The position numbers were made by a program, and so were the translations under genes. The notes beneath the pieces are model-generated. The model saw only the letters and a program-made list of their open reading frames with translations, made no database searches and was not told the DNA's origin. Shown one piece after another: positions 3-9,047 of a DNA stretch of 9,047 bases (position 1 is the first letter of the stretch; each line of letters begins with the position of its first letter). Source of the DNA: a virus; the UHGV virus genome UHGV-0043901, one strand, 5' to 3'.

Positions 3-26
3 GGTGTAGTCAATGGTGTAGTTAAT
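3..26. repeat. Two tandem 12-mers (GGTGTAGTCAAT / GGTGTAGTTAAT) just upstream of the integrase start
   Basis: Direct tandem repeat, 11 of 12 identical, read directly from sequence at 3-14 and 15-26. Confidence 0.4.
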
Positions 27-49: not shown

Positions 50-1288
50 ATGAGCAGCGCAATTCATAGACTTAGCGACACTCTTTTACGAAAATTAAGC
101 GGATCACCAACCACAAAAAACGCCTTTTTTAATGACGGTGGCAATCTTAGCGTAAGACATTCCACCAGCGGCCTGTTAACCTGGTATTTCACTTACAGGG
201 CCGGAACTGGTAGGCAGATATCACCGGAACGTCTGAGGCTGGGCAATTATCCCGATCTGAGCCTGAAAGCTGCCAGGGAAAAAGCGGCACAGTGTCGCGC
301 CTGGCTGGCTGAGGGGAAAAATCCGCGCTATGAACTTAATCATGCTGTACAGGACGCGTTAGCCCCCGTGACGGTTAAGGAAGCGCTCACTTACTGGCTT
401 GAATCGTACGCAAAGGAAAAGCGCACTGACTACGAATCACTGAAAAGCCGGATCAATAAACACATAATTAGCCAGATTGGCGCTATGCCACTGGAAAAAT
501 GCGAGCTACGCCACTGGCTGGCCTGTTTTGACCAGCTTGCTAAGCGTAATCCGGTATCAGCCGGATTTTTGCTACAGGTATGCAAACAGGCGCTTAAGTA
601 CTGCCGAAAACGACGATACGCAATCAGCAACGTTCTTGATGATATGGTTGTCGGTGATGTTGGGAAAAAAGCAGAAATAAGCGAGCGCGTACTAACAAAC
701 AAGGAGCTTGGGGAATTACTACGCGCCCTGGATGAAAAAATTTACCCACCGTACTACAGCGCCATGATTCGCCTCCTGATTGTCTTCGGATGTCGTACCA
801 CTGAGCTAAGACGCTCTGAGGTCCAGGAATGGGATTTTAAAGAAATGCTCTGGACCGTGCCGAAAGAACACAGCAAAACGAAGGTAGCAATATTCAGGCC
901 AATACCGGAAGCGATCTTGCCGTTCTTAACGAAGCTGGTGGAGCAGAACAGGCACACGGGATTATTGCTCGGAGAACTGAAAGGGCAATCATCCGTATCA
1001 GAGTACGGAAGAACGGCACACAGACGCATTAATCAAGCCCCCTGGACGTTGCACGACATCCGGCACACGTTTACAACGATGCTGAACGATTTAGGCGTGG
1101 ATCCTCATGTAGTGGAGCAGCTTACCGCGCACCAGTTGCCAGGAATGCAACGAGTCTATAATCACTCCCGTTATCTTGATGCAAAACGTGACGCTCTTAA
1201 TCTATGGGTTGAGCGTCTCGAGCTTCTCCAGAACAATGATGAAAAAATCGTTGTTATGACCCCGCGAATTTACTCCCAAAATTCTTGA
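50..1288 (+). CDS. int: Tyrosine recombinase / site-specific integrase, P4-like family (N-terminal arm-binding DUF4102-type region plus C-terminal catalytic domain)
   Basis: 412-aa ORF; N-terminus LSDTLLRKL...LSVRHSTSGLLTWYFTYR...LRLGNYPDLSLKAAREKA matches the P4-integrase N-terminal pattern; C-terminus has HDIRHTF (His-x-x-Arg-His) and a downstream Tyr in RVYNHSRY consistent with tyrosine recombinase catalytic residues. Confidence 0.9.
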   Translation: MSSAIHRLSDTLLRKLSGSPTTKNAFFNDGGNLSVRHSTSGLLTWYFTYRAGTGRQISPERLRLGNYPDLSLKAAREKAAQCRAWLAEGKNPRYELNHAVQDALAPVTVKEALTYWLESYAKEKRTDYESLKSRINKHIISQIGAMPLEKCELRHWLACFDQLAKRNPVSAGFLLQVCKQALKYCRKRRYAISNVLDDMVVGDVGKKAEISERVLTNKELGELLRALDEKIYPPYYSAMIRLLIVFGCRTTELRRSEVQEWDFKEMLWTVPKEHSKTKVAIFRPIPEAILPFLTKLVEQNRHTGLLLGELKGQSSVSEYGRTAHRRINQAPWTLHDIRHTFTTMLNDLGVDPHVVEQLTAHQLPGMQRVYNHSRYLDAKRDALNLWVERLELLQNNDEKIVVMTPRIYSQNS

Positions 1289-5942: not shown

Positions 5943-5950
5943 ACGCACAG

Positions 5951-5973
5951 GCCGGAGAAAATCCGGCTTTTTG
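5951..5973 (+). terminator. Rho-independent terminator (GCCGGA-GAAAA-TCCGGC plus T5)
   Basis: 6-bp GC-rich stem with 5-nt loop and TTTTT tail, 9 nt after the ssb stop. Confidence 0.7.
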
Positions 5974-6179: not shown

Positions 6180-6386
6180 ATGGCAGAAGAGAAAAAAGGC
6201 GGTGTTTCGGTGTACATAAGCCCCGAAATCGTGGAGGTGCTCAAGCAGCGCCACAAAAAAAACTATGAGGCTGGCGTGGCGGCTGGACTGGATCCGCTGA
6301 TGACGCCGGAGCCGTCGATAGGTTCACTTGTGCGCTCTTATTTACTTGCGGCGCTTGGGATGCATAAAAATTATGGGGGTGAATAA
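6180..6386 (+). CDS. Small protein (68 aa), first gene of the head operon; possibly ribbon-helix-helix-like
   Basis: Strong Shine-Dalgarno AAGAGGA; stop TAA overlaps the capsid ATG (TAATG at 6384-6388); pattern VSVYISPEIVEVLKQ then helices is compatible with a ribbon-helix-helix fold, but this is weak. Confidence 0.5.
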   Translation: MAEEKKGGVSVYISPEIVEVLKQRHKKNYEAGVAAGLDPLMTPEPSIGSLVRSYLLAALGMHKNYGGE

Positions 6387-7441
6387 TGGCAGGCAAAGCA
6401 ACGGCACTTAACACTAACCAGCTTTTTGCGTACCTGAATCGCGGGGATATTGCGGAATTTAAATTCAGTCCGCTGTTTACCACGCTGTTTTTCCCGAACG
6501 TGGCGACATTCAACACCCAAAACATCATGCTGGACACCCTGGACATTGAAGAGGTTACGATGTCGGCGTTTTGTTCGCCTATGGTGGGTAGTCAGGTCCA
6601 GCGCGATAAAGGGTACGAAACCAGCACGATTAAACCTGGATACATGAAGCCGAAGCACGAAATCGATCCAACGAAAACCATCATGCGTATGGCTGGAGAA
6701 GATCCGGCACAGCTTAATGACCCAACCTATCGCCGTATGCGCCTGATTACTGGCAACATGCGCCGCCAGATAAACGCGATTAAAGCGCGCGTGGAATGGC
6801 TGGCGGTGAATGCGGTAACGACCGGAAAAAACATCATTGAGGGCGAAGGCATAGAACGCTATGAAATCGACTGGAAGATACCGGAAAAAAACATCATAGA
6901 GCAGGCCAAAGGCCGTAAATGGTCCGAGCAGGACAAAGAAACCCACGATCCAATCTATGATATCGAGCTTTATGCGGATCAAGCAGGTTGCCCCGCCAAC
7001 GTCATGATCATGGGCGCTGAGGTATGGCGAACGTTACGCAGCTTTAAAAAATTCCGCGAACTGTACGATCTTTCCCGTGGTTCAGAGTCCGCCGCCGAAC
7101 TGGCCTGTAAAAACCTGGGCGAAGTGGTGAGCTTTAAAGGCTATCTGGGCGATATTGCCCTTATCGTCTATTCCGGCAAATACACTGACAGCGACGGCAC
7201 AGAAAAATATTTCCTTGAGCCTGATTTGCTTGTCCTGGGCAACACCAACAATAAAGGGCTGGTGGCCTATGGTGCGATTATGGATCAGGACGCAGTAAGA
7301 ACGGGCGCAACGCAAAACATGTTTTACCCGAAAAACTGGATTGAGGACGGCGATCCGGCGATTGAGTACGTGCAGACGCACAGCGCACCGCAGCCGGTTC
7401 CGGCAGATATTCGCAAATTTGTTACCGTCAAAATTGGTTAA
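6386..7441 (+). CDS. Major capsid protein, lambda gpE family
   Basis: 351 aa versus 341 aa for lambda gpE, with blocks matching the recalled gpE sequence: FKFSPLFTTLFF (gpE FKFDPLFLRLFF), SPMVGSQV (SPIVSGEV), PGYMKPKHEIDP (PGYVKPKHEVNP), EDPAQLNDPTYRRMR (EDPQNLADPAYRRRR), WSEQDKETHDP (WSKRDKSTYDP), YPKNWIEDGDPA (YPKNWVTTGDPA). GGGGGTG Shine-Dalgarno. Confidence 0.9.
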   Translation: MAGKATALNTNQLFAYLNRGDIAEFKFSPLFTTLFFPNVATFNTQNIMLDTLDIEEVTMSAFCSPMVGSQVQRDKGYETSTIKPGYMKPKHEIDPTKTIMRMAGEDPAQLNDPTYRRMRLITGNMRRQINAIKARVEWLAVNAVTTGKNIIEGEGIERYEIDWKIPEKNIIEQAKGRKWSEQDKETHDPIYDIELYADQAGCPANVMIMGAEVWRTLRSFKKFRELYDLSRGSESAAELACKNLGEVVSFKGYLGDIALIVYSGKYTDSDGTEKYFLEPDLLVLGNTNNKGLVAYGAIMDQDAVRTGATQNMFYPKNWIEDGDPAIEYVQTHSAPQPVPADIRKFVTVKIG

Positions 7442-7452
7442 CGGGGGATTCT

Positions 7453-7788
7453 ATGGACACTCCATACATTGAGTTATTTGCAGGCAGTCAGCAGGTCGCC
7501 ACGACGCTGGTACATTTTGCCGCTGATGCTGGCGTTATTCAGGAATTTACCCCGCTGATGCTGGCGGACAATGGCGAGTTTAAGCCGTGGGATGGTAAGG
7601 AATCTGGCAAGGCTGTTTATCTGACCTCGTACCCTGTTGACACGTCAAAGCAGAAATCAGCACAGTGTTACAAGATGGGGATATTCAATATTGCCGCCGT
7701 TAACTGGCCTGAGAGCGTCGACACCGATGCGAAAAAATGCGCCGCCTTTGCGGGTTCTGGCGTATCCGTTCAGCCGCTGGCCCGATAA
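7453..7788 (+). CDS. Head decoration protein, lambda gpD family
   Basis: 111 aa versus 110 aa for gpD; shared TPLML, WDG, YK-G-F, WPE, D-x-KK-x-AFAG-x-x-S blocks with recalled gpD; GGGGGAT Shine-Dalgarno; immediately follows the capsid gene. Confidence 0.75.
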   Translation: MDTPYIELFAGSQQVATTLVHFAADAGVIQEFTPLMLADNGEFKPWDGKESGKAVYLTSYPVDTSKQKSAQCYKMGIFNIAAVNWPESVDTDAKKCAAFAGSGVSVQPLAR

Positions 7789-7800
7789 GCAGGGGGAACG

Positions 7801-8214
7801 ATGGCAACGAATGAAAGCATCATGACGCTACCGCTGGCGAGTAAATTTAAAGCCGAAGCGCGGGCAATGGCTGACAGAGGGTTATCAACCTACGAGGCCA
7901 TATATCAACTTAACAAACTGGAAGAGCAGGACAAGCCGCGCGCTGATGCGATTATGGCGCTTGATGAATCTGGCGACTATCAGCCGCTGTTACGTGCAAT
8001 GGCAAACGTGCCTTGTATCGATGTTGGTACGGCTAAAAGCATCCTTAGCATGACCATAGAGCAGGAACGTCTGAAGGTTGCGCCGGAACTTACCGCAGCC
8101 TTTGAAAACTTTATGGACATGCACAGCCCGCAAGCCGTATCAGCTGGCATGGCATACGATGGCAGAAACCAGGGCGATGACGGCGACATCGATCGCATAC
8201 TGAAAACCATCTGA
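7801..8214 (+). CDS. Hypothetical protein (137 aa), last gene of head module, no recognisable family
   Basis: AGGGGGAA Shine-Dalgarno 3 nt before the ATG; acidic, protein-like composition; followed 6 nt later by a strong terminator. Confidence 0.55.
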   Translation: MATNESIMTLPLASKFKAEARAMADRGLSTYEAIYQLNKLEEQDKPRADAIMALDESGDYQPLLRAMANVPCIDVGTAKSILSMTIEQERLKVAPELTAAFENFMDMHSPQAVSAGMAYDGRNQGDDGDIDRILKTI

Positions 8215-8220
8215 GACAAG

Positions 8221-8242
8221 GCCGGAGAAATCCGGCTTTTTT
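8221..8242 (+). terminator. Rho-independent terminator (GCCGGA-GAAA-TCCGGC plus T6), near-identical copy of the 5951-5973 terminator
   Basis: Same stem sequence as the terminator after ssb, loop one A shorter, T6 tail. Confidence 0.7.
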
Positions 8243-8244
8243 AC

Positions 8245-8440
8245 GGGTCCTTCCTGGAATTATGGCCCGTTACGGGGCGGCGACCTCGCGCGTTTTCGCT
8301 ATTTATGAAAATTTTCCGGGGAAAATCATGTCGGTACTTCTCGAACATAACTATTTGTTTTTTCTAATATCGAATCCGTAAAAGGTCCGACATGAAAACG
8401 CCTGAAAAAGTCATTTTCGGGCACTCTCATGTCGGCCCCT
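8245..8440 (+). other. cos site (cohesive-end packaging site): cosQ-like region, cosN (GGGCGGCGACCT at 8275-8286) and cosB with three R-like sites
   Basis: 8245-8319 is nearly identical to the recalled lambda cos region (GGGTCCTT-CC...TTACG GGGCGGCGACCT CGCG-GTTTTCGCTATTTATGAAAATTTTCCGG). Downstream R-site positions are collinear with lambda R3-I1-R2-R1, but the repeats read CATGTCGG (8327-8334, plus), CCGACATG (8387-8394, minus), CATGTCGG (8428-8435, plus) instead of lambda CGTTTCC. Distance from cosN to the terS ATG (188 nt) matches lambda (cos to Nu1, 190 nt). Confidence 0.85.
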
Positions 8441-8462
8441 GTATTTGCTATGAGACTATTTC

Positions 8463-9047
8463 ATGAAGGTTAATAAAAAGAAGCTTGCCGAAATTTTCAA
8501 CGTGGATCCGCGGACGATTGAACGCTGGCAGTCTCAGGGGCTTACTTGTGTCTCCGGAGGTGGTAAGGGCGTTGAATCTGTATTTGATACCGCCATGGCA
8601 ATTCAGTGGTATGCGCAGAGGGAAGCTGATATCGAAAACGAAAAGCTCCGGAAAGAACTGGAAGATTTGCGGGCGGCTGCAGAATCAGACTTACAACCGG
8701 GCACCATTGACTATGAGCGCTACCGGCTCACAAAAGCGCAGGCAGATGCGCAGGAGCTTAAAAACGAGCGCGAACGCGGCGACGTTATTGATACAGCGTT
8801 TTGTATATACGTGCTTTCAAAACTGGCGAGTCAGATTTCATCAATCATGGACAGCCTCCCGCTTACTATGCAAAGGAGCTTCCCACAGATGACCCCCGTC
8901 ATGCTGGATGGCCTGAAAAAAGAAGTTGTCAGAGCCTGTAACGCATGCACAAAACTTGATGAAAACATCCCGCGAATGCTGTCCGATTATCTGATGGAAA
9001 CTACCGGAAATGTGCCTGATAAGTTTCAGCCGGATAAAGACAAGTAA
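8463..9047 (+). CDS. terS: Terminase small subunit, lambda Nu1 family (N-terminal winged-HTH cosB-binding domain)
   Basis: 194 aa; collinear similarity to recalled lambda Nu1 across the whole length: [12 protein letters not shown] (MEVNKKQLADIF), [20 protein letters not shown] (EIENEKLRREVEELR), [26 protein letters not shown] ([26 protein letters not shown]), TAFC, LPL. Stop codon is the last three bases of the window. Confidence 0.88.

Follow-up and report, generated by a model that had tools for sequence, protein, structure and literature searches.

A predicted phage 21-type cos site and a chimeric small terminase subunit in a probable Gram-negative phage-inducible chromosomal island

Terminases with lambda, 21 or N15 specificity package the DNA of one another at only ~1e-3 to 1e-4 (PMC4669245), and in laboratory lambda-21 hybrids this specificity was transferred while the large terminase subunit (TerL) partner of the recipient was kept (PMC4669245, PMC9026076). 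In the hybrid lambda-21 hy51, cosB-21 and the 5′ half of gene 1 were placed on the 3′ half of Nu1, which resulted in 21 specificity that works with lambda TerL (PMC4669245, PMC9026076). Among the satellites of lambdoid phages, the phage-inducible chromosomal island (PICI) EcCICFT073 carries capsid (c1499) and decoration (c1500) homologues (PMC6092414, PMC10111431) and a cosB that is unrelated to that of lambda and has neither R repeats nor a site for integration host factor (IHF) (PMC9026076). Its slot after cos holds rpp; Rpp is a winged helix-turn-helix (HTH) protein of 135-153 aa without a TerL-binding tail and acts only as a heterodimer with the small terminase subunit (TerS) of the helper phage (PMC6739421, PMC9026076). 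Here, we analysed a stretch of 9,047 nucleotides from the virus genome UHGV-0043901 (hereafter the window), in which a cos site at positions 8245-8462 is followed by a terS gene, and compared this locus with the systems above.

Two further groups of satellites bear on the comparison. Some E. coli PICIs (IHE3034, 18098) have been noted as TerS-encoding by Fillol-Salom et al. 2018 (PMC6092414), and the TerS-encoding class treated below is likened to them by description. In Staphylococcus aureus pathogenicity islands (SaPIs), the satellite either brings its own TerS or carries the cos of the helper, two principles that are both cited in PMC6092414; SaPIbov5 also has a capsid homologue (Ccm).

We consider it likely that the locus is a functional 21-type cos of a PICI with its own chimeric TerS, and that the cassette was imported from a 21-type prophage. 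The anatomy, the homologies, the mosaic boundaries, the rarity of the chimera and the purifying selection on the TerS tail are the solid part of this reading; DNA binding, TerL recruitment, the identity of the helper and interference with it are what we infer.

The cos site and its specificity

The following features were located in and next to the cos site and compared with phage lambda, phage 21 and a 21-type lambdoid prophage of E. coli M9.

8218-8242, plus strand: terminator-like hairpin (GGCCGGA-GAAA-UCCGGC, then U6) adjoining cosQ; RNA fold -14.5 kcal/mol, z = -2.35
8245-8251, plus strand: cosQ (GGGTCCT), where OL657228 has its cosQ annotation; 7/7 against each of lambda, 21 and the M9 prophage
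8273-8288, plus strand: cosN core, 16/16 against each of lambda, 21 and M9; its 12-nt cohesive end is GGGCGGCGACCT (8275-8286)
8324-8339, plus strand: R3 box (AATCATGTCGGTACTT) at bp 50-65, the offset that the annotated R3 of phage 21 also has; 15/16 against the latter
8348-8360, minus strand: I1, an IHF-like site that reads AAACAAATAGTTA on this strand, 12/13 against phage 21 I1; lambda and 21 likewise have theirs at bp 74-86
8382-8397, minus strand: inverted R2 box (AAGGTCCGACATGAAA in plus-strand reading), 16/16 against the annotated phage 21 R2
8425-8441, plus strand: R1 box (TCTCATGTCGGCCCCTG), 14/17 against the annotated phage 21 R1 and 17/17 against the M9 prophage

The cosQ heptamer and the symmetric cosN lie at lambda-like spacing, the arrangement that characterizes a lambdoid cos, and a search of the island for a second cos site found none, leaving the cosN at 8273-8288 as the sole one. 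The initial annotation had reported a cosQ and a cosN identical to those of lambda, which our comparison confirmed (7/7 and 16/16), within about 75 bp of near-identity to lambda, which held only in part: positions 8241-8319 agree with lambda at 68 of 79 positions and the left 45 bp at 44 of 45, but the segment from cosQ to the nick agrees at only 24 of 34. It had also taken the conservation of cosN as a sign of selection in this element, an argument that falls because the same cosN sequence is common to lambda, 21, phi80-type and PICI cos sites.

Three non-lambda R sites are indeed present, as had been annotated, at the lambda R3, R2 and R1 positions in plus, minus, plus orientation. Their core, CATGTCGG, has exactly three copies in the whole 9,047-bp window, each of them inside cosB (8327-8334 on the plus, 8387-8394 on the minus and 8428-8435 on the plus strand), for a chance expectation of ~0.30 per window; three copies were reached in 1 of 200 shuffles. 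Measured from the nick, these sites lie at bp 53, 113 and 154, compared to 53, 113 and 155 for the CGTTTCC sites of lambda, which share the plus, minus, plus orientation, and 53, 112 and 153 for the sites of phage 21. The I1-like site has one mismatch to the IHF consensus WATCAANNNNTTR, and the terS start codon follows directly downstream of cosB at bp 189 from the nick, the position that it also has in phage 21.

In a blastn search against phage genomes, phage 21 matched positions 8269-8764 with an identity of 88.7% (E = 2e-180), and the R3, I1, R2 and R1 sites of phage 21 are annotated at the homologous positions in GenBank M81255 and OL657228. With its R3-I1-R2-R1 order, the inverted R2 and the CATGTCGG core, the cosB has the characteristics of a lambdoid cos of phage 21 specificity. 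Positions 8275-8462 are identical to the M9 prophage at 188 of 188 positions and the whole cosB at 143 of 143, and positions 8269-8764 are 99.4% identical to prophages of E. coli M6, M9, M11, M15 and M19 (five mouse isolates). The M9 prophage has an ordinary lambda-like late operon, in which the TerS tail and TerL are both 21-type. Among 5,426 complete E. coli genomes, at least 821 contain the 21-type cosB together with the 5′ half of terS (at least 80% coverage), in prophages in all contexts inspected.

By these matches, the R sites are the ordinary ones of a common and already known lambdoid specificity, that of phage 21, a case that the initial annotation itself had named as one in which its hypothesis would fail. 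The proposal that cosB had been newly re-specified could not be maintained, since its boxes are the annotated phage 21 R boxes; non-lambda R sites beside a lambda-like cosN are textbook phage 21 specificity and, as stated, nothing new. Packaging on the island could also be started directly by a 21-specific helper terminase, since 21-type phages have the identical cosB.

The chimeric small terminase subunit

The gene downstream of cosB and the cassette of which it is a part are divided as follows.

8463-9047, plus strand: terS open reading frame (ORF), 194 aa, full-length; Phage_Nu1 (PF07471), profile positions 1-161 of 164, E = 2e-73
8463-8765, plus strand: TerS residues 1-101, 21-type, with the winged-HTH DNA-binding domain and the long alpha-3 linker; 101/101 against the M9 prophage TerS and 93/101 against phage 21 gp1
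8766-9047, plus strand: TerS residues 102-194, C-terminal half of PICI lineage; 89/93 (96%) against the TerS of the AR0077 PICI
8269-8764, plus strand: phage-derived cassette with cosN, the 21-type cosB and TerS codons 1-101; 99.4% to the M-strain prophages and 88.7% to phage 21

The match to PF07471 bears out the annotation of an adjacent Nu1-like TerS; its reading as the cognate TerS in a mobile element without a TerL of its own was right as well. The N-terminus of the protein matched the PDB entries 7lwr (E = 3e-27), whose 54-residue chain is identical to gp1 residues 1-54, 1j9i (E = 7e-22) and 6hn7_B (lambda TerS 1-98, E = 2e-38), and its recognition helix is identical to that of phage 21 gp1 and of 7lwr. 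This winged-HTH homology to lambda gpNu1 and 21 gp1 at the N-terminus places it in the Nu1 family. Compared to lambda, the identity is 55% in the DNA-binding domain, 78% in the linker, 44% in residues 102-160 and 24% in residues 161-194, and the most diverged part is the C-terminal half and not the N-terminal DNA-binding region to which the initial annotation had assigned the divergence. Compared to the TerS of the AR0077 PICI, 55 of 59 residues are identical in residues 102-160 and 34 of 34 in residues 161-194.

In 40-bp bins, the sequence is 92-100% identical to the PICI of strain 23CRST038 up to position 8259, 98-100% identical to M9 and 10-62% identical to N15-type PICIs at 8300-8739, and 100% identical to the PICI of strain AR0077 from 8820 on. 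The codons of TerS residues 1-101 differ from those of the M9 prophage by four synonymous and no non-synonymous changes. These profiles indicate a three-part mosaic, with a cosQ-side flank of PICI lineage, an imported cosB and DNA-binding domain, and a PICI-type tail. The predicted crossovers lie in the conserved cosN segment and at the conserved TerS codons 92-101, and the cassette between them measures ~480 bp.

The PICI-type tail was detected in 698 of the 5,426 complete E. coli genomes. Its usual head is a domain 51% identical to phage N15 gp1, combined with a cosB that has a TTGTTGTTT motif like N15 R3; this N15-like head on a PICI tail was present in ~715 complete genomes and in 79 of 79 full-length IMG/VR examples. 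The 21-type head on a PICI tail covered at least 80% of the query in only four complete genomes (GF60 with 88% and three with ~76%), and the exact TerS protein, WP_253030596.1, was found on 11 contigs, compared to 107 contigs for the GF60 variant and at least 1,000 for the N15-like form. The 21-type module is thus frequent among prophages but seldom seen in PICIs, and the N15-like head is the usual one on PICI tails; these distributions point to a recent transfer from prophage to island. Transfer in the opposite direction, from a PICI to a phage, was considered and rejected on the first of these grounds.

By analogy with Nu1, TerS residues 102-194 would be the region for self-association and TerL binding; PDB matching of the TerS provided no full-length Nu1-family structure for comparison with this tail, as none exists. 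In the window, the tail is 33% identical to that of phage 21, 42% to that of lambda and 49% to that of PhiR5_1, the closest phage, and across the PICI tail variants the maximum identity to any phage tested was 57%. When a phage TerS with a PICI-type tail was sought in 50,697 phage records, the best match was 42-51% and no helper was identified; a 13-residue C-terminal extension of the PICI-type tail is absent from phage TerS. A search of a large protein database with the 93-residue tail returned mostly partial proteins, from which the N-termini could not be classified. Because dN/dS among the PICI tail variants is 0.16-0.26, which indicates purifying selection, the tail is predicted to be functional. 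No TerL gene follows terS in the island, nor does one follow the PICI-type terS in 80 related IMG/VR loci; since the island has no TerL, this subunit must be supplied by a helper.

The composition of the chimera also raises the question of a poisoning effect similar to that of Rpp. TerS residues 1-101, which include the dimer interface and alpha-3, are the same as in the TerS of a 21-type helper, and mixed dimers could form in which the foreign tail disturbs the assembly of the helper terminase. Rpp binds TerS residues 1-98 via the same region (PDB 6hn7; PMC6739421, PMC9026076), with which the swapped segment 1-101 coincides, and the terS of the island lies in the post-cos slot that rpp has in EcCICFT073. 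We consider this mechanism improbable, because mixed dimers would read the same R sites on phage and island and so bring the island no advantage. Moreover, the TerS has no detectable sequence similarity to Rpp and, unlike Rpp, keeps a full-length tail that is even longer than the phage one.

A packaging model and the points that bear on it

In the reading that we favour, homologous recombination with a phage-21-type prophage would have swapped out an N15-like cosB and DNA-binding domain, and the C-terminal 93 residues of the TerS would have stayed PICI-type. Upon induction of a helper, the island would replicate into concatemers, the chimeric TerS would read the R boxes together with IHF, and its PICI-type tail would presumably recruit the helper TerL, which would then nick cosN. 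Packaging would terminate at a downstream cosQ and cosN, probably after 4-5 units of 10.2 kb in heads of lambda capacity; four or five units per head were reported for EcCICFT073 (PMC10111431, PMC6092414). The net effect is best read as a one-step switch from N15-like to 21-type specificity in which site and reader were kept matched and no private specificity was invented.

Several points weigh against this predicted mechanism. The PICI tail is only 33-57% identical to any phage TerS tail, and the tails of lambda and 21, which share 39% identity, cannot replace each other (PMC9026076), so that binding to a given TerL is not predictable. For IHE3034 and 18098, the only Gram-negative PICIs with a TerS gene that have been tested to date, transfer after prophage induction was ≤110 per ml (PMC6092414). 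Expression of terS is hard to explain as well: the terminator-like hairpin abuts cosQ, and a consensus scan found no sigma-70-like promoter upstream of terS. A near-copy of this hairpin lies at 5949-5972, after the gene for the single-stranded DNA-binding protein (SSB), and corresponds to 8219-8242, after the 137-aa gene (both AGGCCGGAGAAA(A)TCCGGCTTTTT); a consensus terminator scan missed both hairpins, and the one adjoining cosQ was confirmed by folding. Finally, the rarity of the exact chimera (11 contigs) could mean that recombination produced it as a neutral or transient by-product.

The same rarity would fit a decaying remnant, that is, a defective prophage fragment or dead recombinant without a packaging function, and so would the poor transfer of TerS-encoding PICIs in the one published test (PMC6092414). 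However, every cos subsite is intact and at the right spacing, the terS reading frame is unbroken, many genomes share the island architecture and att sites, and the identical island sequence was recovered from several independent samples, which makes a remnant very improbable.

The initial annotation had suggested a redirection of packaging, according to which a cosQ and cosN that the helper can cleave, a cosB that the helper TerS cannot read and a cognate TerS would together divert the helper TerL from the helper genome to island DNA. Such a scheme would be the cos-phage equivalent of the SaPI TerS strategy. In keeping with it, the island encodes a TerS without a TerL, its PICI-specific tail is under purifying selection, the final TerS residues are closer to those of lambda (LDELIPGLLSEYIEQSG) than to those of 21, and one prophage-embedded relative adjoins a TerL of lambda/O157 type. 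Given the ~1e3 to 1e4-fold discrimination among 21-, lambda- and N15-specific terminases (PMC4669245), cosB-21 would also be private with a lambda- or N15-specific helper. We nevertheless judge diversion to be unlikely. The cosB is not private but identical to that of common, circulating 21-type prophages, and its near-100% identity implies recent co-residence with a 21-type phage, against which there would be no discrimination. Searches with the island proteins found no inhibitor of the helper TerS (Rpp or Ppi analogue), and another embedded relative lies in a head operon of 21/M9 type (L047), so the helpers are not clearly lambda-type. As the R sites are the ordinary 21-type sites of a common lambdoid phage, redirection as first proposed largely loses its footing and a conditional version survives: diversion is possible only with a helper that is not 21-specific (lambda or N15 specificity) and only if the PICI tail recruits the TerL of that helper.

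Island, relatives and comparison with known systems

The window corresponds to positions 1539-10585 of a 202-kb contig in assembly GCA_024125605.1 (exact identity). The direct att repeats lie 10,176 bp apart (contig positions 1508-1564 and 11684-11740), and the element is integrated between cspD and clpS. Outside the cos-terS region, the following features were assigned.

3-26, plus strand: attL core of the island (GGTGTAGTCAATGGTGTAGTTAAT), direct repeat; the window starts inside attL, and attR lies outside the window, just before clpS
50-1288, plus strand: PICI tyrosine integrase (int), PF00589 and PF13356; relatives integrated between cspD and clpS
6386-7441, plus strand: lambda gpE-like major capsid protein of PICI lineage, PF03864, E = 1e-51
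7453-7788, plus strand: gpD-like head decoration protein, PF02924, E = 3e-17
7801-8214, plus strand: 137-aa protein between the decoration gene and cos, phrog_1999, E = 9e-64

Other island genes encode AlpA, a DUF4222 protein, a D5-type primase-helicase and SSB, and a 96-aa ORF follows terS; gene-content annotation of the island returned no TerL, portal, tail or lysis genes. The element has a size within 10-20 kb, a terminal int, a unidirectional alpA and pri/rep module, its own att site and an incomplete head set, the traits listed for Gram-negative PICIs in PMC6092414 and PMC10111431. Its gene content thus identifies it as a 10.2-kb Gram-negative PICI, an EcCICFT073-type satellite of lambdoid phages. 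The same island layout was found in many E. coli genomes, with relatives at the cspD/clpS and phoQ/icd sites.

The closest phage match of the PICI capsid protein is just 46% (Gifsy-1, PhiR12). The 137-aa protein has no Pfam or PDB match and weakly resembles the C-terminal end of the lambdoid head maturation protease (phrog_53 positions 494-567 of 583, E = 4e-8), a region whose lambda counterpart is the nested scaffold Nu3. As judged from these similarities, the 137-aa ORF and the genes for the E- and D-like proteins may make up a capsid module of the island that comprises shell, decoration and scaffold. The relatives AR0077 and L045 have a 127-aa AlpA-like HTH protein in place of the 137-aa ORF.

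In 80 related loci, terS is mostly preceded by the island capsid gene and followed by a small ORF. The GF60 island (L018 9440-9724), which has a 194-aa TerS, carries the variant cohesive end GGGCGTCGACCT, and its cosB is like that of phage PhiR5_1 (CATGTCAG and CATGTCGT boxes) but the recognition helix of its TerS is 21-like; this pairing may reflect a mismatch or a wider R-site tolerance. In a relative from E. coli JNE151685 (L019 9186-10957), the cos-terS segment is inverted, with terS on the strand opposite to capsid, primase and integrase. Partial PICI late modules (capsid, decoration, cos, TerS and small ORF) were found inside the portal gene of lambdoid prophages (L045 1-8279, L039, L044, L047 and L084) and look like the helper-embedded PICIs of PMC10111431 or remnants thereof. 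In L045, portal residues 5-155 lie upstream and 270-518 downstream of the module, with a lambda/O157-type TerL (99%) immediately in front; the portal around the module of L047 is 95% M9/21-type and part of a 21/M9-type head operon. The helper type was also sought in these embedded remnants, a clue that was rejected as not discriminating because L045 points to lambda/O157 and L047 to 21/M9.

The island of STEC2018-607 (L007 13323-13985) keeps cosQ, cosN and a cosB similar to N15 R3 (GGTTGTTGTTTAAT), and no TerS or Rpp ORF follows, from which it appears that some members of the family depend wholly on the helper terminase. This relative is relevant to the view that the swap is pure cos mimicry, which adapts the island to a 21-specific helper (TerS-21 and TerL-21) and leaves the island TerS a dispensable passenger, as in cos SaPIs such as SaPIbov5. 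The identity of cosB at 143 of 143 positions to a prophage with a 21-type TerS tail and TerL is in line with it, and the 11capE element and, on an initial presumption, EcCICFT073 were taken to depend on the helper's cos machinery (PMC10111431). Mimicry without a role for TerS is nonetheless somewhat unlikely in our view: the ORF is intact, its junction keeps both the reading frame and the pairing of site and reader, and purifying selection on the PICI tail across hundreds of islands is hard to square with a dispensable TerS.

Extending the import that we favour to the whole family, we tentatively suggest that a satellite-only C-terminal module of TerS captures the helper TerL, and that phage cassettes of cosB and DNA-binding domain (N15-like, 21-type, PhiR5_1-like) have repeatedly been grafted onto it at two conserved joints, a scenario for which we hold limited confidence. 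If true, such grafting would allow a switch of packaging specificity, and hence of helper range and competitive position, in one event, and it would constitute a second route to hijack cos packaging that is independent of Rpp. Roughly 13% of complete E. coli genomes contain a TerS-encoding PICI. The characterised Gram-negative PICI uses Rpp. The 21-type and the N15-like head on the same tail form a pair for constructs and thereby offer a handle on TerS-encoding PICIs.

Compared to known systems, the island shares with EcCICFT073 the genes int, alpA and pri, the capsid E and D homologues and a lambda-like cosQ and cosN followed by a non-lambda cosB and a winged-HTH gene; unlike EcCICFT073, it has a 194-aa Nu1-family TerS and a canonical cosB with three R sites. 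PDB matching of the TerS, the 137-aa ORF and the 96-aa ORF detected no Rpp homologue in the island, and the locus does not qualify as a case of Rpp redirection. With the common TerS-encoding PICIs (180-aa TerS), it shares the architecture, a C-terminal half of TerS with 74-96% amino acid identity, the same small ORF after terS and the absence of TerL, but these carry an N15-like domain and a TTGTTGTTT-type cosB instead of the 21-type cassette. The likeness to SaPIs is one of principle, as the satellite brings its own TerS for the helper TerL (pac SaPIs) or carries the cos of the helper (SaPIbov5-type); SaPIs differ in that they reside in other bacteria, have unrelated proteins and use headful packaging for their TerS, and no Ppi-like blocker of the helper TerS was seen in the island. 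In the literature searched, with subscription-only papers outside its scope, neither a 21-type cosB nor a chimeric TerS was found to be described for a PICI; the element is a further Gram-negative PICI and its chimeric TerS is modestly new.

O157 prophages have the same joint in their TerS, with a 21-type head on a lambda-type tail. In one of them (L009 10163-10708), a TerS that naturally combines the DNA-binding half of 21 type with the C-terminal half of lambda type adjoins a lambda-type TerL, which is how the laboratory lambda-21 hybrids are arranged, and matches to such O157-type chimeric TerS recur in O157:H7 genomes among the cosB-21 matches listed. With phage 21 (M81255, OL657228) and the M9-type prophages, the island shares cosQ, cosN, the order, orientation and spacing of R3-I1-R2-R1, the CATGTCGG core, the start of TerS and the recognition helix; it differs from them, where a 21-type tail is followed by TerL, in its PICI-type tail, in the absence of a TerL thereafter and in its PICI-type cosQ flank. 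The closest experimental parallel is lambda-21 hy51, in which cosB-21 and the 5′ half of gene 1 were likewise moved as a unit onto a foreign 3′ half of TerS, with crossovers near cosN and in the middle of the gene. In hy51, the recipient was lambda Nu1, whereas in the island it was a satellite TerS tail in a natural event. By analogy, the island cassette would be the natural counterpart of this laboratory hybrid and a clean example of what Feiss's laboratory hybrids predicted, namely that cosB and the DNA-binding half of TerS travel as an exchangeable cassette, one that can apparently also end up in a satellite with a TerS tail from a separate lineage that is confined to satellites.

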